64,000 nt of DNA from Thermoanaerobaculia bacterium (GCA_036001325.1 DASYUK010000375.1:1616-65615); one strand, 5' to 3'. Positions 6,379 to 39,831 are shown, counted from the first letter of the stretch. Numbers and translations: made by a program. Notes: generated by a model from the sequence alone, not told the origin.

Positions 6379-7728
6379 CTAGTGATGCGCGCTGCGGCGC
6401 TTGTTCACCGAAGATTCAACCTGCACCGTGAGCGTCGTCTCGTTCGCGATCGTGCCGCTCGTCATGCGGATCTTCAGCCGATACTGTCCCGGCGCGGCGT
6501 TCGCGTTCGGCGTCAGGGTTAGCACCGCCGGCGCTCCGACGCGCGCGGTCGTAGTGACCGAAAGGCTGCCGGGAAACGCGTCGATCTGCTGCACGGCGAC
6601 ATCCGCGATGCCGCTCCAGCCATTGATCGATGTGACCGCGTAGATCACCTGCGACTGCTGTCCCGCTTTCGCCACGAGTACGGTCGGACCGGCGATGACG
6701 AAGTTGCCCGCCACCGGCGTGCCGCCGCTCGATGATGAATTGTGCAGCCGTGCCACGTCGGTCCAGATCGCGGGATCCTCGCCGCCGGCGCGCCAATGTG
6801 CGAAGCCGCCGATCTGCGGATGTTTCTTCAGAATCGCATCGACCTTCTTCGCGTAGCTCGACGAGTCCTGGAAGTACACTGTGCGACCGCTGTAGGCGAA
6901 TGTCGCCTCGCCGTTCGCGTCGTACGCGATCTGCGCGCCGACGCGTTGCGCCAGCGCGACCGCTTCGCTGTACACGAGATCCGTCGCGTTCGTCCCCTGC
7001 CAATCGTAGCCATACCACGGCAGACCCATAATGATCTTCTGCGCCGGCATGGTCGCCTCGGCATACGTCGCGATGTTGTCGAGCCAATTGAGCGGCGCGA
7101 TCGCCCCCGCGGCGCTTCCGTCCCAATGATTGTCGTACGCCATGATCTTGACGGTATCGGCGGCCGCGCCGATCGCACGCCAATCCTCACCAGCGGGGCC
7201 GCTCCAGTTGTCGGCGTCGCTCGTCTTCGCACTCACAGTCACCGAGAGCTTCTTTCCCGCTCCATGAAGTTTCTGCGCGAGAAGCTGCACGAACAGAGTG
7301 AAGTTCGGCCTGGCCGCCGCGTTCATGCTCTCGTAGTCGATGTCGATCCCCTCGTACGCGTTCTGCACCACGAGCTGCGTCAGCGCCTCGGCGTGCTTCT
7401 CGCGGAGTGTCGGTGAGCCGACGACGTTCGCCACCAGGTTGCCGTCGAACTTTCCGCCGACGTAGTTCTTGATCGTGGGAACGAGATCGATGCCGGCGAG
7501 CGCGGCGCGCATGTCGGCCGCTTCGGCGTTGGAGTTCTTCGTGACACCGCCGTCGGCTGCGATCGTGTACCAGCCCGGATTCGCTTCATCGAGCTTTCCG
7601 GCGTTCGACTGCATCGAAGCGAGCGCCTTGCTGTCCCAGGCGGGGACCCAGGCGGACATTCGATACGCGTGCGACGGAATCGCGACGGCGAGCAGTACAA
7701 CTGAGAGCCAACCGGCTCGTGACCGCAT
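6379..7728 (-). CDS. Glycoside hydrolase family 18 (chitinase-like) with a C-terminal Ig-like/beta-sandwich domain, secreted
   Basis: Signal peptide MRSRAGWLSVVLLAVAIPSHA. GH18 catalytic motif EGIDIDYE (DxxDxDxE) and MAYDNHWDG. C-terminal ~100 aa are beta-rich (VIAGPTVLVAKAGQQSQVIYAVTSINGWSG...). Confidence 0.75.
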   Translation of the reverse strand: MRSRAGWLSVVLLAVAIPSHAYRMSAWVPAWDSKALASMQSNAGKLDEANPGWYTIAADGGVTKNSNAEAADMRAALAGIDLVPTIKNYVGGKFDGNLVANVVGSPTLREKHAEALTQLVVQNAYEGIDIDYESMNAAARPNFTLFVQLLAQKLHGAGKKLSVTVSAKTSDADNWSGPAGEDWRAIGAAADTVKIMAYDNHWDGSAAGAIAPLNWLDNIATYAEATMPAQKIIMGLPWYGYDWQGTNATDLVYSEAVALAQRVGAQIAYDANGEATFAYSGRTVYFQDSSSYAKKVDAILKKHPQIGGFAHWRAGGEDPAIWTDVARLHNSSSSGGTPVAGNFVIAGPTVLVAKAGQQSQVIYAVTSINGWSGIADVAVQQIDAFPGSLSVTTTARVGAPAVLTLTPNANAAPGQYRLKIRMTSGTIANETTLTVQVESSVNKRRSAHH

Positions 7729-11269: not shown

Positions 11270-12562
11270 ATGTTCGAGTACATGCAACGCGTCGCGGTGA
11301 TCCGCGGCGTCCGCACCCCATTCGCAAAATCAGGAACGCACTACGCCCGCCTGTCGGCTCTCGATCTCGGCAAGATGGCCGTGACGGAGCTCGTCGAGCG
11401 CACAGGGATCCATCCGAATGAAGTGCAGGAAGTCGTCTTCGGCAACGTGATCCCCTCCGTCAAAGCCCCCAACATCGCCCGCGAAATCGTCCTCGGTACC
11501 GGCCTTCCGAAGAAGATCCCCGGCTACACGGTCGGCAAAGCGTGCACGTCGGCGAACCAGGCCATCACCGCTGCGGCGGACATGATCTCGCGCGGTTACG
11601 CCGACACGGTCATCGCCGGCGGATCGGAATCGCTCTCCGACATCCCGATTCTCTTCTCCCGAAACATGTCGGAGGCGCTGACCGGCGCACAGAAAGCGAA
11701 GAGCGTGGCCGCGAGGGTCGGCGCGTTCAAGAAAGTGCGGCCGAAGGATCTGGTCCCCGATGCGCCCGCGATCGCGGAGTCGACGACCGGTCTGTCGATG
11801 GGCGAATCGGCCGAGAAGATGGCGAAGGAGAATCGGATCTCGCGTGAGGCGCAGGACAAGTTCGCGCTGCAGAGTCACCTTCGTGCGGCGCAAGCGACCG
11901 AAAGTGGACGCTTCAAGGATGAAGTGATGACGGTGGTCGTGCCTCCCGGCTACGACGAGGTCGTCGAGATTGACAATCTGATTCGCGCCGACACGACGCT
12001 CGAGGCGCTTTCGAAGCTTCGGCCGGTATTCGATCGAAAGTACGGAACGCTGACCGCCGGCAACTCATCGCCGCTGACCGATGGTGCCGCCGCCGTGCTG
12101 CTGATGTCGGAAGACAAAGCGAAGTCGATGGGCTTCAAGCCGATCGGTTTCATCAGGAGCTATGCCTACGCCGCGACCGATCCGTTCGATCAGCTTCTAC
12201 AGGGACCCGTGTTCGCGTTACCGACGGCGCTCGATCGAGCGAAGGTCACGTTGAAAGACATCGGCGTGATCGAGATGCACGAGGCCTTCGCCGCACAAGT
12301 TTTGTCGAACATTCAATGGATCGGCTCGAAAAAGATCGCCCAGGAGAAACTCGGACGCAGCGAGCCGGTCGGCGATATCGATCCAGAGTCGATCAATCTG
12401 ACGGGCGGTTCGATCGCCCTCGGACATCCGTTTGGCGCGACAGGCGCGCGCATCGTCACGACGGTCTGCAACGAGCTGCAGCGCACCGGCAAACAATACG
12501 GACTCGTGACTGTGTGCGCGGCGGGCGGGATGGGCGTGGCGATGGTGCTCGAGCGGGAGTAG
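11270..12562 (+). CDS. Acetyl-CoA C-acyltransferase (thiolase family)
   Basis: Thiolase N-terminal pattern VIRGVRTPFAKSGTHYARLSALDLG. Active-site Cys region GYTVGKACTSANQAI. C-terminal CAAGGMGVAMVLERE. Confidence 0.9.
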   Translation: MFEYMQRVAVIRGVRTPFAKSGTHYARLSALDLGKMAVTELVERTGIHPNEVQEVVFGNVIPSVKAPNIAREIVLGTGLPKKIPGYTVGKACTSANQAITAAADMISRGYADTVIAGGSESLSDIPILFSRNMSEALTGAQKAKSVAARVGAFKKVRPKDLVPDAPAIAESTTGLSMGESAEKMAKENRISREAQDKFALQSHLRAAQATESGRFKDEVMTVVVPPGYDEVVEIDNLIRADTTLEALSKLRPVFDRKYGTLTAGNSSPLTDGAAAVLLMSEDKAKSMGFKPIGFIRSYAYAATDPFDQLLQGPVFALPTALDRAKVTLKDIGVIEMHEAFAAQVLSNIQWIGSKKIAQEKLGRSEPVGDIDPESINLTGGSIALGHPFGATGARIVTTVCNELQRTGKQYGLVTVCAAGGMGVAMVLERE

Positions 12563-12651
12563 CTCGTTCCGGCCGAACTTCTCAGACGATGCACGTTTTG
12601 CGGGCGAGGGTTCGAGCGAAGCAAGGGTATCGTCAAAGAGCATTTTGTAGA

Positions 12652-15600
12652 TCACCACGTCGAAGCGATCTTCCACGCTGGGAGGTCACCGATCTCCACG
12701 TTGTAAGCGAAAGGTTCGAACGGATTGCGCACGACGCGCACATTGGTTTGAGAGCGCAGTGTGGACATCAACTGCCCATAGGGCAACGTCTGCATCGGAG
12801 ACCTCGAAAGATCAGGCATGGGCCATAGGCGTACGCCAGTTGCGTCTGAGGACGCAATCCAGCGCCCGTCGGACGACACCGCCACGAGCGGTAGGAGGGA
12901 TTCCTGATCTGCATTGGCGATCAGGAGATGTGGCGTCTCGCCGGACGCTGGCCCAATTCGCCCGACGGTGTTCGTGCTCCAGGTGGCGATGAATCTCCCC
13001 GACGGATCGAATGACGCGGACATGACGTGCTCACCGTGCGAAGTAACAAGTTGCGCCGCACCCGTTTCAACGTTCGCGATCGCCAGTCGATGACGGTGTC
13101 GGTCTTCACTCGACTCACCGATGACAAGATGTCGTCCATCGGCTGCAATGTCGATAAGAGGCAGTCCGAGCTGCCGCCGATATACAACGCGTTGTTTTCC
13201 GTCGTGGAGATTCCAGACGCGCACATCGCCTCGGCCCGCTGTGATGAGACGGCCATCGGGCAGGAAGCCAACATCCCAGATCGTGCCAAACATGACGTTT
13301 TGTGCGGTTTTTCGTGTCGATGCTCCCGATGGTTCGAGAGTTGTCCGCTGTCCTGTGTCGACGTCCCATAGCCAGATCTCGCCCGCACCGCGGCCATTCT
13401 GTGTGCCGGCAACCGCGAATTTTCCATCGCGGGTGAGTGCCGACGACATCAAATAGTGCGAACCATTGGAAGGAACTGATAACTGCTTCTCAAAACCCGA
13501 TGCCACGACTGATGCCCGATTGTAGTCGCCGACGAAAACGCGGTGATCACTGCCATCAACGGAGGTGGTCCATCCGGCGGATCGCGTAAGCCACTCGCTC
13601 TTGCTCGCGACCGCAAAGCTGACGGGCAACCGCAGAACTCCGCTCTCTCGCGTTGCCAGGAGCCATCGGCTATCGGAGGAAAAATCCAGATCCTTCGCCG
13701 GTGCCCGCGAAAGGATGAACGGGTATCGTCTCGATAGCGGCCAGAGCGCCGCGGTGGCGCCCATCACATCCGTGGACGCGAGCCAGCGACCGCGCGGATC
13801 GAACGTGATGGCGTACGCGTCGGGCGTTCTGATCATGAGCGGCTCGGCGTCGGGCGGCCCCTGGAGGTTCCACAGCTCGATGAGGGTTCGTCTGGCGACA
13901 CCGAGCATCGTGCCCGTCGCATCGAAGCGGATGTCATGGAGTTTGATCGGTTCGCTCGAGAGTGCGAACGGATCACGATTGATGGAGCGGACGAGAGCAG
14001 GCACGGCGGCCGACAAAGTCCACAATCTGATTTCGCCACGGGCGTTTCCGCATGCGATCTGGTTGCCGTCGGACGAGAAGGTAACGAGATTGGCGTGCGG
14101 CAAGTCCGGCCAAAGCGCCCATGCTCTCGCAGATGGAATCAATGGGACCAGACTGCAGTCAGACAATGCCATCCAGCGTTCGGTGGGATCGACAATGCCG
14201 ATGTCTTTCGCGCGAAGAATGTCGTGGACCGGAACGCCTGTAATCGGCGAGACCGAAAGAATCTTCAGACCATTACTCGCGCTGCGACAAGTGTAGACGC
14301 GATTGGCAACCACTTGAAAACCACAATCGCCATCGATGATGCGAATCACTGCGCGCTTGCTGAGCGACCACACGCGGGTCTTGCGGTCCATGGAATATCT
14401 GACGAGAAGCAGATCGCTTTCCGGCCCGAACGCGACCGGACCGACATTGCCTGAAGCTCCAGGAACGCTCAGAGCTTGGGCTGCCCGTCCTCCTTCCCCG
14501 TAGAGGAAAACTCGCCCATCATTTCCGCCAATAGCGAGCCAGCGACCGTCCGGACTGAAGGCGAAGCCGCCGGATCCCTCCGCACTCGGAAGAGCGACAC
14601 GCGTCGCCACGGGTCCACGCCAAAGTGCTTCCACCGCGAATTGACGTGCCTCGGTGGAATCGGCAAGTTCGAGACTCGCGATGGTGTACGCGAGCGCGAC
14701 AGCATTGCTCTTATCGACGTTCATCCGCCCGAACGCCAGAAGCTTCGCCGCTTCGGCTTGTTTCATCGCTGCGATGGCACGGTGCCGCAGCACGGCCATC
14801 ACAACGACCGTTGCAACCAGAACGATGAATGCCGCGGTGGTCGCCATGACTGCGCGGCGGCGGCGGCGCTTCGCGAGGTGCGCCATCGCTCTTCCGAAGT
14901 CGTCTTCGACGTGCGTCAATGTTCCGGGATATCGCTCGCGCCACAGTTCGTACTCTTTCAGCGCTGTACCGCTCCAAAGCAGATCGTCGGAGCGTTCGCG
15001 GCCATCCCACATCTGTGCTGACTGACGCAGCTGATCGCGCAGCAGCGCACCATCGGCATCCTGCGCCTGCCATCGGACCAGCCGAGGCCAGGAAGTGAGC
15101 AGCGACTCGTGAATGAATTCGATGCGCGTCTCGTCACTCTTGTACGACGTCAGCAGTCGTGCGCCGATGAGTACGTCGAGAACTTCATTCGCCGCGCGTC
15201 GATCTGCAAAGAGCGAAAGGAGTTCTTTTCGATCGCGCCCGACACGCGTTCCCTGCGCCGTTACCAGATTCCGGAACAGCTCTCGAACGATGGCAATGTG
15301 CTCGGATTCCATCGGCGCTAATGCGGCTTCGGCGTGTTGGGCCAACGCCCCGGCGACTCCTCCGATCTCCAGATATGTCGCGCGCGTGAGGACGCCTTGT
15401 TCCCGATCGCGACGCTCCCATAGACGGGCCATCGCGAACGCGGCCAGAGGAAGTACGCCTCGCTCACCACCAACCTGCTCGACGATTTCATCGACGAGCG
15501 CCTCTTCTTCGAAGGCATATCCCGCTTTCAATGCCGGCTGCACGATCGCTCGGCGTAAAGCGTCGCCGGTTGGCGGAAGCAGCGGAGTCAGCTCCGAGAA

Positions 15601-16947
15601 AAGTGGTGCGAAACACGCGAACTGGTGACAGAAGATCAGGAAATCGTCGCGTATCGAAAGAAGCACGTGCACGTCCGCTTCAATGGCGAGGCGCGAGAGA
15701 ATATCTGCGCACCCCGCCTGAATCGCCGGTGAGTTGAGCGTGAAGAGCTCCTCGGCTTGATCCACGATGAGCAAACATCCTTCGTGCTCATGCCGCCAGC
15801 TCTTCATGACACTCAGTACCTTCGCCACGTCGTCGAATGCGTCGAGGTCGCTGAACTCTCTTGTGAGCGCGGCGAAAGGGCGATCTCCCGGAGTGAGCAT
15901 CAGCACGCCCCAACCTGGCGGCAGCGCCGGCACCAGTCCTGCGCGAAGGAAAGATGTCTTCCCGACGCCGGAGGGACCGATCAGACCGAGAAGGCGCGCC
16001 GGCCCGGCCAGCCTTCGCAACATCGTCTCGATCTCCGTCTCCCGACCGAAGAAGTTCGGAGCCTCTGCTTCGGTGAACGATGAGAGACCGGGATAAGGAC
16101 TGCGTTCTCCCGCTCGCGTGAACCGGCGAGTCATGTCCTCCAGTGCGCGCGCCAGCTCGGCCGACGACGCATAGCGCGTCTCGGGATTCGCAGCGAGGGC
16201 ACGGCGAAGAATGGACGACCACGGTGTATCGGGAAGATGGGGCGGATCGTGTCGTACGGCTGACCAGACGCGCTCGAGATCCGTCCCGCCGCGGACTCCG
16301 GTCGGGTCGATCATCTCTCCCAGCACGACGCCTGCGGCAAAGATGTCGGCACGTTGTCCGGGCGTTTGTTCCGGCGCGATGTACGGACGAGTGCCTGTGA
16401 TCGACGATGCGGACGCGTCCATCGCCGATCGCGTCAGCCCGAAATCCATGACCACCACGCGACCGCTGCGCGTGATCATCACGTTTTCCGGCTTGAAGTC
16501 GCCGTGAATGAATCCGGCGGCGTGAATTGCGTTCAATCCGGCCAGAAACTGCGCAGCGATCTCCTGTGCCTCGGTGAGCTCGAGCGGGCTTCGCTCGGTG
16601 AGCAAAGTTCTCAGCGTCGTTCCGTCGATGTACTCCATCGACAGGAGCTCGAGACCTTCGGCTTCCACGAGATCGAACGTCCGGCATACGTTGGGAGAGA
16701 TGACTTCGCGCGCTGCTCTGATCTCGCCCCGCAGAGACTCCATCGATTCCCGTTGCAGGAACTTGAGCGCAACGTCGACGCGCAGTCGCAGATCAAATGC
16801 TTGCCAGACCTCGCCCATCCCACCGTGACCAAGCGGCCGCACGATCTCATAACGGCTCGCGAGAATTTGGCCACGGCCGAGGAACGACTCCTCGTCTGAG
16901 CGAGGACGTTGATCGGCAGTCACGGGAAGAGCGCGCGAATTGTCCAT
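12652..16947 (-). CDS. Multidomain Ser/Thr protein kinase: kinase domain, P-loop (STAND/NB-ARC-like) NTPase, single TM helix, WD40/TolB-like beta-propeller (1431 aa)
   Basis: Kinase: GHGGMGEVWQAFD, VALKFL, catalytic loop IHGDFKPENVMI (HGD instead of HRD), DFGL. P-loop GLIGPSGVGKTSFLRAG with downstream LLIVDQAEE (Walker B-like). TM AVMATTAAFIVLVATVVVMAVL. Repeats FSPDGRWLAIGGNDGRVFLY, FSSDGNQIACGNARGEIRLW and others. Confidence 0.8.
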   Translation of the reverse strand: MDNSRALPVTADQRPRSDEESFLGRGQILASRYEIVRPLGHGGMGEVWQAFDLRLRVDVALKFLQRESMESLRGEIRAAREVISPNVCRTFDLVEAEGLELLSMEYIDGTTLRTLLTERSPLELTEAQEIAAQFLAGLNAIHAAGFIHGDFKPENVMITRSGRVVVMDFGLTRSAMDASASSITGTRPYIAPEQTPGQRADIFAAGVVLGEMIDPTGVRGGTDLERVWSAVRHDPPHLPDTPWSSILRRALAANPETRYASSAELARALEDMTRRFTRAGERSPYPGLSSFTEAEAPNFFGRETEIETMLRRLAGPARLLGLIGPSGVGKTSFLRAGLVPALPPGWGVLMLTPGDRPFAALTREFSDLDAFDDVAKVLSVMKSWRHEHEGCLLIVDQAEELFTLNSPAIQAGCADILSRLAIEADVHVLLSIRDDFLIFCHQFACFAPLFSELTPLLPPTGDALRRAIVQPALKAGYAFEEEALVDEIVEQVGGERGVLPLAAFAMARLWERRDREQGVLTRATYLEIGGVAGALAQHAEAALAPMESEHIAIVRELFRNLVTAQGTRVGRDRKELLSLFADRRAANEVLDVLIGARLLTSYKSDETRIEFIHESLLTSWPRLVRWQAQDADGALLRDQLRQSAQMWDGRERSDDLLWSGTALKEYELWRERYPGTLTHVEDDFGRAMAHLAKRRRRRAVMATTAAFIVLVATVVVMAVLRHRAIAAMKQAEAAKLLAFGRMNVDKSNAVALAYTIASLELADSTEARQFAVEALWRGPVATRVALPSAEGSGGFAFSPDGRWLAIGGNDGRVFLYGEGGRAAQALSVPGASGNVGPVAFGPESDLLLVRYSMDRKTRVWSLSKRAVIRIIDGDCGFQVVANRVYTCRSASNGLKILSVSPITGVPVHDILRAKDIGIVDPTERWMALSDCSLVPLIPSARAWALWPDLPHANLVTFSSDGNQIACGNARGEIRLWTLSAAVPALVRSINRDPFALSSEPIKLHDIRFDATGTMLGVARRTLIELWNLQGPPDAEPLMIRTPDAYAITFDPRGRWLASTDVMGATAALWPLSRRYPFILSRAPAKDLDFSSDSRWLLATRESGVLRLPVSFAVASKSEWLTRSAGWTTSVDGSDHRVFVGDYNRASVVASGFEKQLSVPSNGSHYLMSSALTRDGKFAVAGTQNGRGAGEIWLWDVDTGQRTTLEPSGASTRKTAQNVMFGTIWDVGFLPDGRLITAGRGDVRVWNLHDGKQRVVYRRQLGLPLIDIAADGRHLVIGESSEDRHRHRLAIANVETGAAQLVTSHGEHVMSASFDPSGRFIATWSTNTVGRIGPASGETPHLLIANADQESLLPLVAVSSDGRWIASSDATGVRLWPMPDLSRSPMQTLPYGQLMSTLRSQTNVRVVRNPFEPFAYNVEIGDLPAWKIASTW

Positions 16948-17029
16948 CGGTCACGGCGGTCGACGATTGTGGTGTACCTCCACGGTAGACCCGGCTGAGG
17001 CGAAAGACAATGTGACCGGCGGCGCGTAT

Positions 17030-17506
17030 CTACCTGCCGCGACCGGCAGCCGGATGCCGGAGTGCTGTTGACGCTTCCGCGAATCTCCTCAGCCGTAGGC
17101 CAAAGCCGGCGATCTCGCGCGCCGCAGCATCTTCGCAAATCGTTTTGGTCGAGTATCTGGGCCGCCGCACGTCGCGAAGATACTTGGAAGCCGACTGTCG
17201 CATGTCACTGATATGCACATACTCGTGTGCCATCGCGTCGGGCACGAGAATCACGATAAGCGGCAGGATACGGGCAGACGCCATAATCATCCACTGCTCA
17301 TCGGAGGCGATGCAATCTGCTGTCAGCGCGAAATCGACGAATCGCGTGCACGCCTCGATCGGTCGGTCGATATTGCAAAGCCGCCGGACGCCCGCCTCGT
17401 TTTGCGCAGCAACGAAGCGAGGCCGCTGCATATCGAGAGAGGCTTCAGAACCGAGTATGAATGTCGCGTGGAGTACGATAGTGAGAAACCAAAGACAGCG
17501 GCGCAC
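17030..17506 (-). CDS. Small secreted hypothetical protein with an HExxH motif (possible zincin-like peptidase); atypically low GC3
   Basis: Signal peptide-like MRRCLWFLTIVLHATFILGSEAS. AMAHEYVHISDM contains HEYVH. Codon usage differs from neighbours; the call is weak. Confidence 0.35.
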   Translation of the reverse strand: MRRCLWFLTIVLHATFILGSEASLDMQRPRFVAAQNEAGVRRLCNIDRPIEACTRFVDFALTADCIASDEQWMIMASARILPLIVILVPDAMAHEYVHISDMRQSASKYLRDVRRPRYSTKTICEDAAAREIAGFGLRLRRFAEASTALRHPAAGRGR

Positions 17507-17621
17507 AGCGTGCCTCCCTTCGAGGGTGAATCGCTGTGCTGCGCAGCACGCTGACCTCTAAATTGCGTTGAGCAGCGTGGCGGCGCGTGAAGACGCGGTA
17601 GTGATTTGGTAGGGACTCGAC

Positions 17622-18278
17622 GTGCGACTGCAATTCGGTGACTTCACCTTCGACGGCGGCGGATGCCAGGTACTCAAGAACGGCGATGCCGTCGCACTGT
17701 CGCCGAAGGCATTCCAACTTCTGGCGTTGCTCCTCGAGGAACGCGGACATGTGATTTCGAAGAAGGAATTGCTGGAACGACTATGGCCCGACACCGTTGT
17801 CGCCGAGGAAAATCTCAAGGCGCGCATTCGCGAGATTCGGACGGCTCTCGGCGATAGTGGACGAGAAGGGAAATGGATCCGAACCGCGCGTGGCTTTGGC
17901 TACGCGTTTCAAGGTGAAGTGTGGGATGAAGATATTTCTCGTCGTACAGCGGCACCCCAGCAGATGTACTGGCTTCACTACGGTGAGCGCGGCTTTGCGG
18001 TCGGGCGAGGTGAAACGTATGTCGGTCGCGATCCGCGATGCGGAATATGGATCGATGATGCGAGCGTGTCGCGACGGCATGCACGTATCGTCGTCTCTTC
18101 CGAACGCGTGACACTCGAGGACCTCGGCAGCAAGAACGGGACAGCGGTCGGCACAATCTCAATATTGGGGACGACCGAGCTGTTTGACGGAGATCGAATT
18201 CGCATCGGCTCAGTGAAGCTCACGTTTCGTTCGGCCGGCGTCGATCAATCGACGGAGAGTTCGCCAAACAACTCGTAG
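17622..18278 (+). CDS. DNA-binding protein with an N-terminal OmpR/PhoB-type winged-helix domain and a C-terminal FHA (phosphothreonine-binding) domain
   Basis: wHTH: LSPKAFQLLALLLEERGHVISKKELLERLWPD...IRTARGFGYAF. FHA: FAVGRGETYVGRDPRCGIWIDDASVSRRHARI...GSKNGTAVG...DGDRIRIGSVKLTF (the G-R, S-xx-H and N-G motifs). GTG start. Confidence 0.75.
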   Translation: MRLQFGDFTFDGGGCQVLKNGDAVALSPKAFQLLALLLEERGHVISKKELLERLWPDTVVAEENLKARIREIRTALGDSGREGKWIRTARGFGYAFQGEVWDEDISRRTAAPQQMYWLHYGERGFAVGRGETYVGRDPRCGIWIDDASVSRRHARIVVSSERVTLEDLGSKNGTAVGTISILGTTELFDGDRIRIGSVKLTFRSAGVDQSTESSPNNS

Positions 18279-18349
18279 AGAGGCAATCGCTCTCCGACCT
18301 GCCGGTTCTCTCTTCCCGCAACGTGGCACAGTGCGCTGACGGGGTCCAC

Positions 18350-18533
18350 CGAAAGCGAAGAGCGTGGCGGCGAAGCTCGGCGCGTTGAAGGGAGTGCCGG
18401 CCAAGGATCTCGTCCGCGATGCTCCTGCGATGGCGGAGTCGCAACGAACTGCAGCGCATCGACAAACAGTATGGGCTGGTGACCGTGCGCGGCGGGCGGG
18501 ATGGGGGTGGCGATGGTGCTCGAGCGGGAGTAG
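18350..18533 (+). pseudogene. Decayed fragment of a thiolase paralog (middle segment fused to the 3' end with stop codon; about 680 bp internal deletion)
   Basis: 18350-18440 aligns to 11690-11790 of the intact thiolase (KAKSVAAKLGALKGVPAKDLVRDAPAMAES versus KAKSVAARVGAFKKVRPKDLVPDAPAIAES). It then jumps to the equivalent of 12468-12562 (NELQRIDKQYGLVTV...MVLERE-stop). About 85% nt identity by eye. Confidence 0.7.
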
Positions 18534-18552
18534 CTCGGTCGTGGGTCGTAGG

Positions 18553-18593
18553 TCGTGGGGGCCGCATCGCAAGAACGCCGAAGCCCCCACGAC
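18553..18593 (+). terminator. GC-rich hairpin (11-bp stem) just downstream of the thiolase-fragment stop codon; relic terminator-like structure
   Basis: GTCGTGGGGGC-cgcatcgcaagaacgccgaa-GCCCCCACGAC; no U-tract follows. Confidence 0.35.
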
Positions 18594-18631
18594 AACGACC
18601 GGCGACCAGCGACCTCTATAATCGCGAGCGA

Positions 18632-19996
18632 ATGACGCTCATCCTCCTCGCCCTTTTCCTGTTCGCCGCCGTCCCACCCCTCGACAACCCCACTCGGCAG
18701 CTCGTCCGCGACATCTACCGGCAGCTCATCGAGATCAATACGACCGAGTCGGTCGGCAACATGACCACTGCGGCCGAGGCGATGGCGGTGCGATTGCGCG
18801 CCGCCGGCTTTCCTGAATCGGATGTGAAGATGCTGGCACCCGAGCCCCGGCACGGCAATCTCGTGGCGCGACTGCGAGGCACCGGCGCGAAGAAGCCGAT
18901 CCTGCTTCTCGCGCACCTCGATGTCGTCGAAGCGCGGCGCGAAGACTGGTCGACCGATCCCTTCAAGCTCGTCGAGCAGGACGGCTGGTTCTACGGCCGC
19001 GGCACCGGCGATGACAAGGCGATGGCCGCGATCTGGATCGCCACATTGATTCGTTTGAAGCAGGAACACTTCGTTCCGAATCGCGACATCATCGTGGCGC
19101 TCACCGCTGATGAAGAGACCGGCGATTACAACGGCGTGAGCTGGCTCGTCGACAACCATCGCAACCTCATCGACGCCGCGCTGGCGATCAATGAGGGCGG
19201 TGGCGGCGCGATCAAGGAAGGGAAGTATCTCTACAACGGCGTCGGCGCGAGCGAGAAGGTCTATGTGACCTTGGCGCTCACCGTCCGCAACAAGGGCGGA
19301 CACAGCTCCGTGCCGCAAAAGCCAAACGCGATCTATCAGCTCGCGGCCGGTCTTACGCGTCTCGTTGATTATGAATTCCCCGTGAAGCTGAATGAAGTCA
19401 CGCGTGCGTACTTCCGCCGCCTCGCCGACATCGAAGGCGGAGCGTTGGCGGCCGACATGCGCGCGCTCGCCGATCACGAAGACCCATCGGCCGCTGCACG
19501 CGTGGCGCAGACGCCGGCGTACAACGCGCGCATGCGCACGACGTGCGTGGCGACGCGTCTCGATGCCGGTCACGCCGACAATGCGCTGCCGCAGATGGCG
19601 AAAGCGACCGTCAACTGCCGGGTGTTGCCTGGCGAAGATCCGGAAGAAGTTCGCAAGACGGTCGTGCGCGTGCTCAATGATCCGGCGATCGAAGTCGTGT
19701 GGATCGACAAGGCGAAGCCGAGTGTGCCGTCACCGCTCTCGCCGGAGATCATGAAGCCGGTCGAGCAGTTGACGAGCGAATTCTGGCCGGGCGTGCCGGT
19801 GCTGCCGCTGATGGCCTCCGGCGCGAGCGACAGCCTCTATGTGCGAAATGCCGGCATTCCGACGTACGGCATCTCGGCGATGTTCGGCGACATCAATGAG
19901 AATCGCGCGCACGGCAAGGACGAGCGCGTCGGCGTGAAGCAGTTCTACGATTCCGCGCAGTTCCTTTACGCACTGGTCAAAAGACTCTCGTCGTGA
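18632..19996 (+). CDS. M20 family metallopeptidase (carboxypeptidase G2/succinyl-diaminopimelate-desuccinylase-like), secreted
   Basis: Signal peptide MTLILLALFLFAAV. M20 motifs HLDVV, GTGDDKA, TADEETG. The track ORF begins upstream at 18419 inside the thiolase remnant; start taken at the ATG preceding the signal peptide. Confidence 0.8.
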   Translation: MTLILLALFLFAAVPPLDNPTRQLVRDIYRQLIEINTTESVGNMTTAAEAMAVRLRAAGFPESDVKMLAPEPRHGNLVARLRGTGAKKPILLLAHLDVVEARREDWSTDPFKLVEQDGWFYGRGTGDDKAMAAIWIATLIRLKQEHFVPNRDIIVALTADEETGDYNGVSWLVDNHRNLIDAALAINEGGGGAIKEGKYLYNGVGASEKVYVTLALTVRNKGGHSSVPQKPNAIYQLAAGLTRLVDYEFPVKLNEVTRAYFRRLADIEGGALAADMRALADHEDPSAAARVAQTPAYNARMRTTCVATRLDAGHADNALPQMAKATVNCRVLPGEDPEEVRKTVVRVLNDPAIEVVWIDKAKPSVPSPLSPEIMKPVEQLTSEFWPGVPVLPLMASGASDSLYVRNAGIPTYGISAMFGDINENRAHGKDERVGVKQFYDSAQFLYALVKRLSS

Positions 19997-36900: not shown

Positions 36901-37240
36901 CTTCCGCGCTGAGCTCATGAGTCAGAAGATCCTCTCCGCCGCGGACCTCGCGCGCATTCCAACCGGTCGCCGCGTCACGACCGCAGGAGCAGTGATCGTC
37001 CGCCAGCGCCCGGGCACCGCAAAAGGATTCGTGTTCCTCACCCTCGAAGATGAAACCGGTCTCTCGCAGGCCATCGTCAGTCCGAAACTTTTCAGCGAGC
37101 AGCGTTCGACGATCCTCGGCCATTCGGGCCTGATCGTCGAAGGAATCGTGCAGAACACCGATGGGCAGTGTTCCGTCAAAGCGGAGCGTTTCTGGCCCTT
37201 GCAGGGACTCGAGGACATTCGCAGTCACGACTTCCACTAG
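33968..37240 (+). CDS. dnaE2: Error-prone DNA polymerase DnaE2 (ImuC), DNA polymerase III alpha-like
   Basis: PHP domain beginning YAELRAASAFSFLDGAS, and pol III alpha core motifs. 1090 aa as called. The first ~60 residues are Lys-rich, lower-GC and precede the PHP domain, so the true start may be internal (for example a GTG near 34056 with an AAGGAGAAGG upstream). Confidence 0.85.
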   Translation: MSHGRKPTRNLDALQITYADPAGHKEKVKNRVTNVPLSREYDHIPFVPEKFGGTKPNEEPEEKTPKLRNRATAKRPYAELRAASAFSFLDGASLPEDLMYHAADKDLPAMALVDTNGVYGAPRFYSAAKKTGVKALVGSELVLETDHRFTVLVENRTGYKNLCKLVTAGAAGREKGKARFNWGLIEQYNEGLHCLTRADDETINKIAGIFKNRTHLELQRHFNRDEERHNIRLVDLARRLKLPIVATNGVRYARAQDKELHDVLTCIRETTHVDKAGRLLGVNRERYVKTADEMCRLFADLPEAIDGAWSLANTLDFTLADLGYQFPDYPLPPGETTTSFLRKIAWNSAKSRFRPLTARAQSQIEKELNMIEKLDLAGYFLIVWDIVQFCNREKIIVQGRGSAANSAVCYALGITAVDPVKMELLFERFLSEERGEWPDIDLDLPSGDQREKVIQHVYKTYGVHAAAMTANVITYRDRSAAREVGKALGYSLEQADKLSKCVSTWNFGEIREAMENLPGELEKTGFDPADLRVQHFMRLYMHIQNLPRHLGQHSGGMVMAKGRLDEVVPLEPASMPGRVVIQWDKDDCADLGLIKVDLLGLGMLAAIEEALPLIRDNEGKEVDLAHLPQNDPLVYKMLNEADTIGMFQVESRAQMASLPRNAPKKFYDIVVQVAIIRPGPIVGGMIRPFFDRRQGRAPVEYPHPCLEPILKRTLGVPLFQEQLLRIAMVAANFTGGEAEELRRAMGFKRSMERMHEIEGRLRAGMTTNGIDAKAQDQIVKSITSFALYGFPESHAASFALIAYASAYIKARHPAAFYVSLLNAWPMGFYHPATLVKDAQRHDTEVLPIDMNHSGWKCRWENGGVRLGLRFVKGLREATAKKIEANQPFQSTEDLAYRCKLRDDQLTKLAYAGALSSLGLTRRGALWQASKAAKPAGELFEGRAAEGGGAPLKEMSEIQNTMADYHAMELTTGPHLVEHFRAELMSQKILSAADLARIPTGRRVTTAGAVIVRQRPGTAKGFVFLTLEDETGLSQAIVSPKLFSEQRSTILGHSGLIVEGIVQNTDGQCSVKAERFWPLQGLEDIRSHDFH

Positions 37241-37257
37241 AATCACGTCACCGCACC

Positions 37258-39831
37258 ATGCTCGCGCCCGGGACGATGCTCTCGCGTTATCGCGTCGAGT
37301 CTCTGCTCGGCAGCGGAGGGATGGGCGAGGTCTACAAAGCGCGCGACGAGTCACTCGAGCGGCCCGTCGCGATCAAGATTCTTCGATCGGATGTGACGCG
37401 AGATGAGAACCGCGTTCGCCGGTTCGTTCAGGAAGCGAAGACCGCCTCGTCGCTGAATCACCCCCACATCGTTCACGTCTACGAGATTGGCGTGAGCGAT
37501 TCGACGCATTTCATCGCCATGGAGTATGTCGAGGGTTCGACGCTTCGCGATCATCTGAGGACTGATGGAACAGCGCGCCTGCTCACGCTTCTGGCGCAGG
37601 TGGCCGATGCCCTGGCGAAGGCACACGCTGCCGGCGTCGTCCACCGCGATCTGAAGCCGGAGAACATCCTCGTCACCTCTGACGGTTATGCCAAGATTGC
37701 CGATTTCGGACTGGCAAAACTGCTGGACCGCAAAGACGCCTCGGCGATCTCAGTGACGGTCGACAAGGTGGCCACGAAAGAAGGAGTCGCCGTTGGGACG
37801 ATCGGTTACATGTCGCCCGAACAGGTGCAGGGAGGACGGGTCGACGAGCGTTCCGACATCTTCTCATTCGGCTGCATTCTCTACGAAGCCGTGGCGAAAC
37901 GACGTCCATTCGAAGGAGCGTCGACGTTCGATACGTTTCAGAAAATCGTCGCGGCCGAACCGCCGCCGCTGTCCCCTTCCAGCGATGTACCGCCGGCGCT
38001 CCAACGAGTCATGCGCCGTTGCCTCGCCAAGGAACCCGATGACCGGTACCACTCCGCAAAAGATCTCGCCATCGACCTGCGCGAGTTGCGTGAGGAGTTG
38101 AGCGGATCGCATCGAAGCGTAGTGGTCCCGAAGAGGATCGGGTACGCCGCACTCGCAGTTGTTTTCATCGCTCTCATTGCCGCTACGATTCTGGTGAAGC
38201 GTCGATCGCCATCACCGCCAGCGACGGCTCCGATCCGAATCAAGCAGCTCACCACCAGCGGCAAGGTTTCCGAGGCCGCGATCTCCCCCGACGGAAAGTA
38301 TCTCGCGTATGTCGACCGCGGAGTGCTGCGGGAGTCGAGCATCTCCCTGCTGCACCTTCCGACAGGAAGCGCGGTGCAGATCGTGCCGCGTCAGAGCGGG
38401 ATCGAATTCGCCAGCGTCTCGTTTTCGCCCGATGGCGACTACATCGATTACACGCGCCGGCCGCTTGCGAGCTCTCAGCATGATCTCGAGCGGATCCCGG
38501 TTCTCGGCGGAACGTCTCAGCAGGTGCTCGCTGATGTCGACACCCCCGTCGCTTTCGCGCCGGACGGTCGCCATATCGCATTCGTTCGCGGAGCGAAAGA
38601 GGAGTCGTTCCTCATGGTCGCCGACGGCGAAGGTCATTCTGAGCGAAAGCTGGCCATCGTTAAGCGACCGCAACGACTGGCGGTCGCGGCACCGGCCTGG
38701 TCGCCGGATGGAAAGACGATCGCGGCAATCGTCCGCGAACCTCGGCCGCTGCTGCTCGCTGTCAGTGTCGAAAACGGTTCGACGCGAACGATTTCTGGAC
38801 CACAATTTCAGTGGCTCACCAGCGTAGCGTGGTCGCGCGACGACGCGCTTCTCGTCACGGGAGTGGAGAGGTCATCGCGCAATGCGGAAATCTGGCGCAT
38901 CAATCTGGCGACGGGCTCCGGCGCGCCGATCACGAGCGGCATCATTGGATACCAGGGTCTCAGTCTCTCGAAAAACGGAACGGCGATTGTCAGTCTGGCC
39001 CAGAACCTTTTCGCGACTCTAACCGCCATGCCTTTCAACGCCGCTGGAGAACCCGCGCCGATCGTTGTGGGCAGCGCGCGTAATGGCACCGGTGGCCTCG
39101 CAGCGCTTCCCGATGGACGCATCGTCTACTCGTCGGATGCAGGGAATCGACACGGCATCTGGATCATCGACGCGAATGGGAAGAACGCGCGCGAACTTCT
39201 CGTCCCGACGGCCGGATCGTCACTCGGATGGCCGGCTGTTTCTCCGGATGGACGCCTCATCGCGTACGTTTCCCAATCGGGCGAGAAGCACACGATTCAC
39301 GTCGCCGACATCGCCTCCGGGAACGAGCTTTCAGTGCCCGCATTCCCTCCAGACTCATTCTGGCCACAGTTCTCCGCCGACGGCGAGTCGATCGTGTTTG
39401 TGAGCGACAAGCCGGGGACGGAAACTTCCTCGCTGTATCGGCGCGCATTGCGTGCAGGTGAGCTCACACAGATTCTTCCGCGCGCGTCGCACCCGGCAGT
39501 TTCGCCAGATGGAAAATGGATCGCGTTTTTCCTGCACGGCATCTCGGTCGTTTCGTCCCGAGGCGGAAAGCCGCGCCAGATCGTCGAACCACCGTCGCTG
39601 AAGATCCCTTTGCGATGGACATCTGACAGCAAAGCGATTCTCAATCCGGAAGTTCACAATGATGTCGTGAACATCTGGGCTTATCCGATCGGCGGCGGCG
39701 CGCCGAGACAGGTCACGCACTTCACCTCACAGAACATCTTCTTCTTCGATGTCACGCGCGACGGCAAGCGGCTGATTCTCTCGCGCGGCGACGTCACCAC
39801 CGATGCCGTGCTGATCGAAAATGCACCCTAA
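37258..39831 (+). CDS. PknD-like Ser/Thr protein kinase with a TM helix and an extracytoplasmic TolB/WD40-like beta-propeller
   Basis: Kinase: GSGGMGEVYKARD, VAIKIL, HRDLKPENILV, DFGLAK, GTIGYMSPEQ. TM IGYAALAVVFIALIAATILV. Repeats ISPDGKYLAY, FSPDGDYIDY, FAPDGRHIAF, WSPDGKTIAA, VSPDGRLIAY, FSADGESIVF, VSPDGKWIAF. 18 nt downstream of dnaE2 on the same strand. Confidence 0.8.
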   Translation: MLAPGTMLSRYRVESLLGSGGMGEVYKARDESLERPVAIKILRSDVTRDENRVRRFVQEAKTASSLNHPHIVHVYEIGVSDSTHFIAMEYVEGSTLRDHLRTDGTARLLTLLAQVADALAKAHAAGVVHRDLKPENILVTSDGYAKIADFGLAKLLDRKDASAISVTVDKVATKEGVAVGTIGYMSPEQVQGGRVDERSDIFSFGCILYEAVAKRRPFEGASTFDTFQKIVAAEPPPLSPSSDVPPALQRVMRRCLAKEPDDRYHSAKDLAIDLRELREELSGSHRSVVVPKRIGYAALAVVFIALIAATILVKRRSPSPPATAPIRIKQLTTSGKVSEAAISPDGKYLAYVDRGVLRESSISLLHLPTGSAVQIVPRQSGIEFASVSFSPDGDYIDYTRRPLASSQHDLERIPVLGGTSQQVLADVDTPVAFAPDGRHIAFVRGAKEESFLMVADGEGHSERKLAIVKRPQRLAVAAPAWSPDGKTIAAIVREPRPLLLAVSVENGSTRTISGPQFQWLTSVAWSRDDALLVTGVERSSRNAEIWRINLATGSGAPITSGIIGYQGLSLSKNGTAIVSLAQNLFATLTAMPFNAAGEPAPIVVGSARNGTGGLAALPDGRIVYSSDAGNRHGIWIIDANGKNARELLVPTAGSSLGWPAVSPDGRLIAYVSQSGEKHTIHVADIASGNELSVPAFPPDSFWPQFSADGESIVFVSDKPGTETSSLYRRALRAGELTQILPRASHPAVSPDGKWIAFFLHGISVVSSRGGKPRQIVEPPSLKIPLRWTSDSKAILNPEVHNDVVNIWAYPIGGGAPRQVTHFTSQNIFFFDVTRDGKRLILSRGDVTTDAVLIENAP

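Follow-up and report, generated by a model that had tools for sequence, protein, structure and literature searches.

How a membrane-bound bacterial Ser/Thr kinase can instruct transcription is the question raised by a locus from Thermoanaerobaculia bacterium (GCA_036001325.1, DASYUK010000375.1:1616-65615). Most of what is known about bacterial Ser/Thr kinases that signal to transcription comes from a small number of promiscuous examples in actinobacteria and firmicutes. In the stretch of 64,000 nucleotides analyzed here, referred to as the window, a gene for a giant Ser/Thr kinase of 1431 amino acids (aa) and a gene for a 218-aa protein with a winged helix-turn-helix (wHTH) and an FHA domain lie close to each other on opposite strands, with a small gene for a 158-aa protein between them (Table 1). 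An initial annotation, made from the sequence alone, had proposed that the kinase writes and the wHTH-FHA protein reads a phosphothreonine mark, had considered a defence role conceivable and had left the small gene as a bystander. All three open reading frames (ORFs) are present as annotated, and the distance between the kinase and regulator genes, estimated at about 675 bp, is 674 bp and includes the small ORF. Our analysis points to a module in which a receptor kinase would act through an FHA regulator on DNA and to which a predicted secreted HExxH protein would belong; on the strength of the sequence comparisons, we regard this as the probable reading of the locus. ORF coordinates, GC contents at third codon positions (GC3) and repeats were determined for the 64-kb window, and comparison loci are named L001, L002, etc.

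Hidden Markov model searches, the check that had been suggested for the kinase and the wHTH-FHA protein, recovered the predicted domains in each of them. In the 218-aa protein, described beforehand as an OmpR/PhoB-type winged helix plus an FHA domain, the two matches are of nearly equal strength (Trans_reg_C, 68.3 bits against a cut-off of 26.2, E 6e-19; FHA, 68.6 bits, E 6e-19), and Pfam contains no further domain that matches this protein. As it lacks a receiver (REC) domain, with no Response_reg match and a winged helix that begins at residue ~2, it is not a two-component response regulator. Likewise, BTAD gave no match at E<=0.1, and the ~35 residues between the two domains leave no room for it. 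The phosphothreonine-contacting residues of the FHA domain (G135, R136, S150, H153 and N172) are invariant among 28 aligned members. In a sequence search of the PDB, the closest solved relatives of the FHA domain were EmbR (2fez, E 2e-10), followed by GarA and OdhI (~2e-9), and those of the winged helix were the DNA-binding domains of response regulators. Taken together, these matches strongly support the prediction that the protein is a transcription factor composed of a phosphothreonine-binding FHA domain and an OmpR-type winged helix. A search with the 218-aa protein yielded a family of more than 7000 clusters at E<=1e-5; the top 120 homologues are uniform, each combining these two domains in a protein of ~215 aa, and the family stems from Acidobacteriota (Thermoanaerobaculia, Vicinamibacterales) and Gemmatimonadaceae.

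The regulator carries a further conserved feature just past its FHA domain, where the pattern S-T-x-[S/T] is present in 80 of 108 homologues (74%) as compared to 3.8% of 16-residue background windows; in 36 of the 80 carriers, a leucine at +3 gives rise to a pT-x-x-L pattern. In the AlphaFold2 (AF2) model, both domains are predicted with confidence; residues 107-112 form a flexible linker, residues 207-218 form a disordered tail with a predicted local distance difference test score (pLDDT) below 50, and the predicted template modelling score (pTM) of 0.57 argues against fixed packing between the domains. The conserved S-T-x-S/T tail is likely a phospho-acceptor, and a threonine so close to an FHA domain would, by analogy, correspond to the arrangement known from switches of the GarA/OdhI type and from FHA dimerisation that depends on phosphorylation.

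If the regulator reads a mark set by a kinase, the two genes should be found together elsewhere, and this is indeed the case. Eighty genomic wHTH-FHA loci were scanned in six frames with the domains present in the window. A Ser/Thr kinase ORF lies no more than 400 bp from the regulator gene in 39 of them, and in 26 of these it is co-directional and directly downstream, often overlapping the regulator gene; a kinase is encoded within 3 kb in another 20 loci, and 17 of the 80 have no kinase in the available sequence. Expressed as density per 10 kb, there are 3.2 kinase ORFs at distances of up to 1 kb from the regulator versus 0.3-0.4 at a distance of 3-10 kb, which is an approximately 10-fold enrichment. 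The 28 adjacent kinases that were scanned are mostly receptor kinases of ~900 aa, equipped with PD40 (TolB-like; 23 cases) or TPR repeats (4 cases) and once (L041) with nSTAND1 and WD40.

The combination seen in the window, a kinase with an nSTAND1 module next to a wHTH-FHA regulator, exists in five independent loci, the window included, and in three gene orders. In L001/L002, from a metagenome-assembled genome (MAG) of the Gemmatimonadaceae, the regulator is 68% identical and the arrangement is that of the window, with the kinase-nSTAND1 gene and the small gene on the minus strand and the regulator gene on the plus strand. In L003-L006 (regulator 58% identical) the small gene (minus) is followed by a regulator gene (plus) that overlaps the start of the gene for the kinase-nSTAND1-WD40 protein (plus). 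The locus L102, which was reached from the kinase side (kinase 44% identical), has the order kinase (plus), a small gene (minus), regulator (plus), and in L041 from Vicinamibacteria the regulator gene is followed by the kinase gene. L007 (regulator 56% identical) contains insertion sequence fragments and no adjacent kinase in its annotated part and was counted as non-conserving. Five loci in three gene orders are to be expected of a functional pair and not of inherited synteny, and comparative evidence of this kind strongly supports the view that kinase and regulator form a conserved functional pair. The initial annotation had named the findings that would speak against it, namely the absence of FHA and Trans_reg_C matches from one protein, the absence of kinase and NTPase matches from the other, or a pairing not conserved in related genomes; none of these was obtained.

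The same data allow us to judge whether the two genes could be mere neighbours, with the regulator reading phosphothreonines on targets of other kinases or possessing an FHA domain that works independently of phosphorylation, and with the regulator and the small secreted protein as the real unit. Such a situation would be in keeping with the 17 regulator loci without a kinase, with the pairing of the small gene with winged-helix regulators that have neither an FHA domain nor a kinase (L091, L100 and L098, see below), with the presence of a second receptor kinase gene in the window and with the frequent promiscuity of bacterial Ser/Thr kinases (PMC4601284). Mere co-location is nevertheless unlikely because of the 10-fold enrichment of kinases beside regulators and because the pairing survives three gene rearrangements; overlapping or co-directional pairs are common and the phosphothreonine-binding residues are invariant. 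Overall, we rate this explanation as very improbable. The second kinase gene (37054..39828, plus strand) encodes a 925-aa protein with a kinase domain and a PD40 propeller. Kinases of this type are the usual partners of wHTH-FHA regulators in other loci; in the remainder of the window, a further wHTH-FHA gene was not detected.

Turning to the kinase, the 1431-aa protein matches Pkinase (aa 33-213, 119.6 bits against a cut-off of 31.7), nSTAND1 (PF20703, 309.4 bits against a cut-off of 27.1, E 7e-92, covering model positions 1-378 of 379) and, across aa ~790-1330, WD40-type propeller models (all Pfam). The hallmarks of Hanks-type Ser/Thr kinases are all present: the fold, the Gly-rich loop (GHGGMGEV, position 40), the lysine (VALK, 59), the catalytic Asp and Asn (HGDFKPEN, 148), DFG (168) and APE (191). 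The arginine of the HRD motif is replaced by glycine, which makes the protein a non-RD kinase. The NTPase has a Walker A (GPSGVGKT, 324) and a Walker B motif (LLIVDQ, 392) and exceeds the curated threshold of the nSTAND1 family model. The architecture that had been read from the sequence, i.e., a non-RD kinase, a STAND NTPase, one transmembrane (TM) helix and a WD40 propeller, is thereby confirmed except for the type of NTPase, for which the assignment to NB-ARC/AAA_16 has to be replaced by nSTAND1; AAA_16 scores under its threshold.

The kinase family comprises at least 1213 clusters of the same architecture at E<=1e-20, the top 120 of which (~1400-1770 aa) were analyzed. A hydropathy scan predicts exactly one TM helix in 120 out of 120 homologues, always at the boundary between NTPase and WD40 region, and its N-terminal flank has an excess of Lys and Arg in every one of them. 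According to the positive-inside rule, the kinase and NTPase are therefore predicted to reside in the cytoplasm and the WD40 repeats outside, just as the initial annotation had assumed for the propeller. The large protein is thus strongly supported as a membrane receptor kinase with a predicted cytoplasmic kinase-NTPase part and a predicted periplasmic WD40 part. The median identity to the 119 homologues is 28% for the WD40 part versus 56% for the kinase and NTPase parts, and it follows that the sensor end diversifies. Most family members (114 of 120) are HRD kinases; HGD is present in 2 of 120, as well as in the kinases paired with the regulators of L001 and L003, and is absent from those of L041 and L102. 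Two homologues, P0346 and P0361 (1618-1667 aa), possess an extra TIR domain (PF13676) beside kinase, nSTAND1 and WD40, a hint that part of the kinase family may have a conflict-type role.

Non-RD kinases are linked to innate-immune receptors in eukaryotes, and this counts in favour of a different explanation, according to which the protein is an NLR/Avs-like conflict sensor whose WD40 repeats would bind an invader molecule, whose STAND module would oligomerise and whose kinase would be a toxic or abortive effector with the FHA protein as an adaptor. The nSTAND1 clade was in fact defined in predicted conflict systems, in which S/T/Y-kinase and FHA occur as effector-position domains (PMC8195603), and the TIR-bearing relatives, the fast-diverging sensor region, the horizontal acquisition of the block and the tandem arrays of paralogues beside toxin-antitoxin or AbiEii genes (both described below) fit the same picture. 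The matches found with PADLOC (PD-T4-6, mad6, MkoA and a kinase model), however, cover aa ~7-337, which is essentially the kinase domain alone, and no Avs or other STAND model was matched. Overall, PADLOC and NCBIfam returned matches of a generic kind (kinase, FHA and wHTH) and pointed to no named system. The WD40 repeats are parted from the NTPase by the TM helix in all 120 homologues and are thereby placed in the predicted periplasm; the phage proteins sensed by known Avs proteins are cytoplasmic. The conserved neighbours, moreover, are transcription factors (wHTH-FHA and extracytoplasmic function (ECF) sigma factors) and outer-membrane receptor-like genes instead of nucleases, proteases or other effectors, and the regulator family pairs mostly with ordinary receptor kinases. 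The Avs-like defence role that had been considered is not borne out by these data, and we deem a conflict sensor of this kind quite unlikely.

Eight loci were also viewed from the side of the kinase (L102-L109, with ~5-6 kb on each side for L106-L109). The transcription factor gene next to the kinase gene is that of a wHTH-FHA regulator in L102, and an ECF sigma gene (PF07638) lies upstream in three of the eight, directly in L103 and L104 and at a distance of ~1.5 kb in L105; nSTAND1 kinases thus sit beside an ECF sigma gene more often than beside a wHTH-FHA regulator. Since the kinases vary from regulator to regulator and the transcription factors from kinase to kinase, both families are modular and the window is a point at which they meet. 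Paralogues of the kinase-nSTAND1-WD40 protein are encoded in tandem arrays (among L103, L104, L105, L106, L108 and L109), with toxin-antitoxin or AbiEii genes interspersed in L105 and L106.

A gene of the CarboxypepD_reg/outer-membrane-barrel (TonB-receptor-like) type adjoins the nSTAND1 kinase gene in five of the eight loci. Together with the ECF sigma partners in three of them and with an ECF sigma-FecR-Plug cluster that lies right after the regulator gene in L001, this brings to mind a trans-envelope device of the FecA-FecR-FecI type, in which the WD40 region would sense the state of a TonB-dependent-like receptor or an imported substrate and the kinase would relay the signal to a dedicated transcription factor. 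The block in the window has no outer-membrane receptor gene, its neighbours being thiolase and M20 peptidase genes, and the association with receptor genes is a raw count from eight loci without a background comparison. Outer-membrane receptor genes are, in addition, abundant in Acidobacteriota. A Fec-like device, which is a specific version of the proposed kinase-regulator module with a defined input and is compatible with it, consequently appears improbable to us for the window.

The small gene, which lies 82 bp upstream of the kinase gene on the same strand, had been described as a low-GC3 gene for a secreted HExxH protein. The motif (HEYVHISD), the predicted secretion and the low GC3 hold true; low GC3 is not peculiar to this gene (see below), and the gene is not a bystander. 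A protein 70% identical is encoded at the same position in L001 and one 36% identical in L003. When an upstream GTG is taken as the start codon, the protein gains a hydrophobic, signal-like N-terminus, a feature shared by the proteins of L001 and L003 and by further members; public annotations start at Met26. A word-indexed homologue search returned two relatives, and an exhaustive profile search was needed to retrieve the family, which has at least 224 clusters at 50% identity, all of ~150 aa. Among 91 aligned members, C44, C53, H94, E95, H98 and C124 are invariant and C65 and D101 reach a conservation of at least 90%, such that HExxHxxD and four cysteines constitute the family motif. The AF2 model is confident (pLDDT 92.7). 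No match was obtained in Pfam, NCBIfam or PADLOC, apart from weak matches to DUF922 in 6 of the 91 members. With respect to zincins, the protein has the conserved HExxH, but neither the zincin fold nor a peptidase family model was recognized.

Fourteen further loci of the small gene, one Logan contig and 13 mostly short metagenome contigs, were collected, the metagenome contigs with an alignment of 10 sequences. The small gene is divergent from a Trans_reg_C gene in ten of them; a Trans_reg_C ORF was not seen in the other four, at least three of which extend for 82-250 bp upstream, too short a stretch to tell. The regulators vary: in L091 (6123-7931, minus strand) and L100 (6123-7901, minus strand) they are wHTH-TM-TolB_N-TPR proteins of 592-602 aa, and in L098 a 268-aa wHTH protein takes this position. 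This suggests that the same small gene is placed under different sensory inputs via wHTH-TM-TolB_N-TPR or wHTH-FHA regulators. As the type of regulator varies and the divergent layout stays, the stable unit would be that of a winged-helix regulator and a small, predicted secreted HExxH protein, with a variable input device on the regulator. Divergent pairing of the two genes across a conserved control region is strongly supported by these comparisons, and the small gene appears as a conserved third member of the module. L102 differs in the slot of the small gene (6573-7049, minus strand), which encodes a 158-aa protein of unrelated sequence; its N-terminus is signal-like, and its JAB-like HxH...S..D motif would make it a secreted metalloenzyme of another kind.

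The control region between the small gene and the regulator gene measures 115 bp (17507-17621). When the regulator-proximal intergenic DNA of the window, L001, L003, L088 and L102 was aligned, two conserved islands stood out from otherwise diverged sequence. The first, with 17 consecutive invariant columns, is the element ATCGCT-GTGCTGCGCAGCAC-GCTGA, which has a single exact copy in the window; within 1.5 Mb of loci, exact copies were found at the equivalent intergenic position in L001/2, L003-6, L088 and L102. In the window (72 nt), L001 and L003, its palindrome is separated from the regulator start codon by a nearly constant ~70-73 nt, and from the small gene by a variable 30-73 nt. No exact palindrome was found in 80 more distant regulator loci, which contain scattered matches with one or two mismatches, and the element is therefore specific to the sub-clade of the window. 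The only other exact copy of GTGCTGCGCAGCAC in the 1.5 Mb is found in L003 (10315-10328), where it is part of an erythromycin-esterase-like gene at a distance of ~9.6 kb from the regulator; it could be due to chance or be a second operator. The second island is the direct repeat GGTAG-N6-GGTAG, which has a period of 11 nt and is kept in the window, L001 and L088; L003 has one mismatch in the second unit (GGTAG-N6-CGTAG), and L102 has another repeat of the same period at the same position, GGCTGGAG-N3-GGCTGGAG.

The three genes share features that set them apart from their surroundings. Their GC3 values range from 0.62 to 0.67, compared to 0.79-0.81 for the flanking zwf, thiolase, M20 peptidase and molybdopterin-oxidoreductase genes. 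The left border of the block is formed by an intact thiolase gene and the right border, 6 nt past the stop codon of the regulator gene, by a decayed copy of parts of the same gene: positions 18285-18540 repeat 11628-11668, 11688-11782 and 12468-12569 at 82-96% identity, with an internal deletion of ~685 bp; the last part runs a few bases past the stop codon. The same three-gene order is found in the Gemmatimonadaceae MAG, which belongs to a different phylum, with 68-70% identity for regulator and small protein; identical proteins are present in public data from a Thermoanaerobaculia MAG. Because of the bracketing thiolase repeats, the low GC3 and the identical gene order in another phylum, we think it rather likely that the 5.7-kb block (12570-18284) was acquired horizontally, as a single three-gene signalling module. 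No tRNA gene was found near the block and no integrase-like gene inside it, and the flanking genes that were identified have housekeeping functions. A scan of 12400-18700 revealed no convincing terminator. The DNA that separates the thiolase gene from the zwf-like gene contains a perfect, AT-rich inverted repeat of 32 nt (11174-11205/11216-11247, 10-nt spacer). It occurs once in the window and could act as a terminator in both directions or represent a small element with a mobile or regulatory function.

Table 1. Features of the three-gene block and its borders in the window
Feature	Position	Strand	Evidence
Thiolase gene, intact; left border of block	11270..12562	+	Thiolase_N/C; repeats shared with remnant; GC3 0.79
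Gene for 1431-aa receptor Ser/Thr kinase (kinase-nSTAND1 NTPase-TM-WD40)	12652..16947	-	ORF; Pfam; identical 1431-aa public protein
WD40 beta-propeller region, aa ~785-1431, predicted periplasmic, fast-evolving	12655..14595	-	WD40-type Pfam matches
Single predicted TM helix, aa 702-720, preceded by KRRRRR	14788..14844	-	Hydropathy scan
nSTAND1 STAND NTPase module, aa 284-654	14986..16098	-	PF20703; Walker A/B
Hanks-type kinase domain, non-RD, aa 33-283	16099..16851	-	Pkinase match; all catalytic motifs
Gene for 158-aa predicted secreted HExxH/4-Cys mini-protein	17030..17506	-	
HEYVHISD codons (H94, E95, H98, D101), putative metal site	17204..17227	-	Invariance
Conserved element ATCGCT-GTGCTGCGCAGCAC-GCTGA	17530..17554	.	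Perfect 14-bp palindrome at 17536-17549
Direct repeat GGTAG-N6-GGTAG, abutting regulator start codon	17597..17615 (GGTAG units, 17597-17612)	+	
Gene for 218-aa wHTH-FHA regulator	17622..18278	+	ORF; Pfam; AF2
OmpR/PhoB-type winged-helix DNA-binding domain, aa 22-96	17685..17909	+	Trans_reg_C
FHA domain, aa 133-196	18018..18209	+	FHA match; invariant columns
Tail motif S210-T211-E212-S213, candidate phospho-acceptor	18249..18260	+	Conserved pattern; disordered tail
Thiolase 3'-end copy, partial, decayed; right border of block	18285..18540	+	Direct repeats D1, D2, D3, D6

The module could operate as follows. A periplasmic or envelope ligand would bind to the WD40 region, and the signal would cross the membrane and flip the STAND NTPase from a closed into an oligomeric ATP state. 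Oligomerisation would join the N-terminal kinase domains and activate the non-RD kinase by induced proximity, a fitting mode of control for a kinase that is not reliant on phosphorylation of its activation loop. The kinase would autophosphorylate on threonine, recruit the regulator through the FHA domain and then phosphorylate Thr211 in the disordered S-T-x-S tail. The phosphorylated tail would bind to an FHA domain, either in trans, resulting in dimerisation, or in cis, resulting in a GarA/OdhI-like switch, and would thus alter how far the 11-bp direct repeat, the 14-bp palindrome or both are occupied within the 115-bp intergenic region. Occupancy of these operators would determine how strongly the regulator gene itself and the operon for small protein and kinase are transcribed, i.e., provide feedback, and the secreted HExxH protein would be the output that may act back on the periplasmic signal. 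The scheme in its complete form, a transmembrane STAND receptor in which extracytoplasmic WD40 repeats drive NTPase oligomerisation, combined with a non-RD kinase and an FHA 'response regulator' that dimerises via its phospho-tail, is tentative, and we consider it doubtful.

Several observations weigh against the reading of the locus as a module of receptor kinase, FHA regulator and DNA or against individual steps of it. The usual partner of the regulator is a PD40-type kinase without a STAND module (23 of the 28 scanned), and nSTAND1 kinases are in the minority; the NTPase is therefore not needed for the logic of kinase and regulator, and its role is the weakest link, the least supported step of the mechanism. 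Viewed from the kinase, four of the eight nSTAND1-kinase loci (L106-L109, ~5-6 kb on each side) lack a neighbouring transcription factor gene. OmpR-type domains usually target direct repeats about one helical turn apart, and the palindrome may therefore belong to another protein. Repeats with a period of 10-12 nt upstream of 79 regulators exceed the upstream control (p 6e-4) but not the coding control; in this crude test, which is at most suggestive, there were 4 perfect repeats of that kind versus 0 in the controls. A scan of 12400-18700 revealed no sigma-70-type promoter, the consensus of which may not suit the phylum of the host. Finally, the PDB holds neither a fold match nor a profile-search match for the small protein, and a known peptidase fold was not recognized.

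Should the module exist as proposed, it would, together with thousands of simpler kinase/wHTH-FHA pairs, represent a Ser/Thr-based counterpart of two-component systems in Acidobacteriota, with the secreted HExxH protein, of a new fold, as the effector or as the arm that generates the ligand. The pair appears dedicated and genetically linked, consisting of a receptor kinase and a minimal winged-helix/FHA regulator whose family exceeds 7000 clusters, and would amount to a simple circuit of writer, reader and DNA with predicted operators and a predicted phospho-site. The position of the STAND NTPase between kinase and membrane raises the question of how an extracytoplasmic sensor could drive an NLR-type switch. 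The HExxH/4-Cys family, for which the predicted structure is confident and no relative has been solved, offers a smaller lead of its own. In the literature, of which not all journals were covered, we found no paper on wHTH-FHA regulators paired with receptor kinases in Acidobacteriota and no experiments.

Among known systems, EmbR-PknH from Mycobacterium tuberculosis shares with the window pair an N-terminal OmpR-type winged helix, a C-terminal FHA domain and a membrane receptor Ser/Thr kinase as partner, and the FHA domain of EmbR (2fez) is the closest solved relative of that of the regulator. PknH has its own extracellular sensor domain; the window kinase differs from it by a STAND NTPase and WD40 repeats. 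The regulator, with 218 aa as opposed to 388 aa in EmbR, lacks BTAD, has a winged helix nearer to the response-regulator type (2fez is matched in the PDB solely through the FHA stretch) and carries the conserved S-T-x-S/T tail. It has the winged helix and the C-terminal FHA domain of EmbR/SARP proteins, phosphothreonine binding being deduced from the residues, and membership in this group fails because BTAD is absent. EmbR-PknH stems from Actinobacteria and the window family from Acidobacteriota and Gemmatimonadota. The earlier comparison of the pair with EmbR-PknH minus the BTAD domain is upheld by the invariant FHA residues, the relationship to the EmbR FHA domain and the comparative data, which support a pair that would be functionally EmbR/PknH-like. 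Phosphorylation of EmbR by PknH depends on the FHA domain and enhances the binding of EmbR to promoters (PMC4601284).

The full-length match to PF20703 connects the kinase with the nSTAND1 conflict STANDs described by Kaur, Burroughs, Iyer and Aravind, a clade for which an N-terminal kinase in effector position and C-terminal repeats are listed, as in the window protein (PMC8195603). It differs from them in that a TM helix lies between NTPase and repeats in 120 of 120 homologues and in that its neighbours are transcription factors and not partners with effector-associated domains. Membership among Avs-type systems was considered and rejected: no curated defence model beyond the generic domain was matched, and a cytoplasmic sensor and a cell-killing effector were not recognized. 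ECF43 and related sigma groups resemble the locus in that a receptor kinase gene lies beside the gene for a dedicated transcription factor without an anti-sigma factor, and paralogues of the window kinase family indeed have an ECF sigma gene (PF07638) upstream in their loci. For such kinase-linked ECF groups, direct phosphorylation by the kinase has been hypothesised (PMC7826278); the partner in the window is a wHTH-FHA protein instead, and recognition would use the FHA domain as a phospho-reader.

ToxR/CadC-like one-component regulators are comparable in so far as genes of the small HExxH family are also divergent from those for wHTH-TM-TolB_N-TPR regulators. Their input is fused to the regulator, whereas in the window it is divided between two parts, a kinase of its own and the FHA reader. 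GarA and OdhI from Actinobacteria, lastly, are small FHA proteins with a disordered tail that bears a conserved Ser/Thr motif. Their phosphorylated tail binds to their own FHA domain, and the protein is thereby switched off. In the window regulator the tail is C-terminal and not N-terminal as in GarA/OdhI, and the putative switch would have a DNA-binding domain as its output, in contrast to the binding of metabolic enzymes by GarA and OdhI; intramolecular FHA switches are mentioned in the same work that describes EmbR phosphorylation (PMC4601284).

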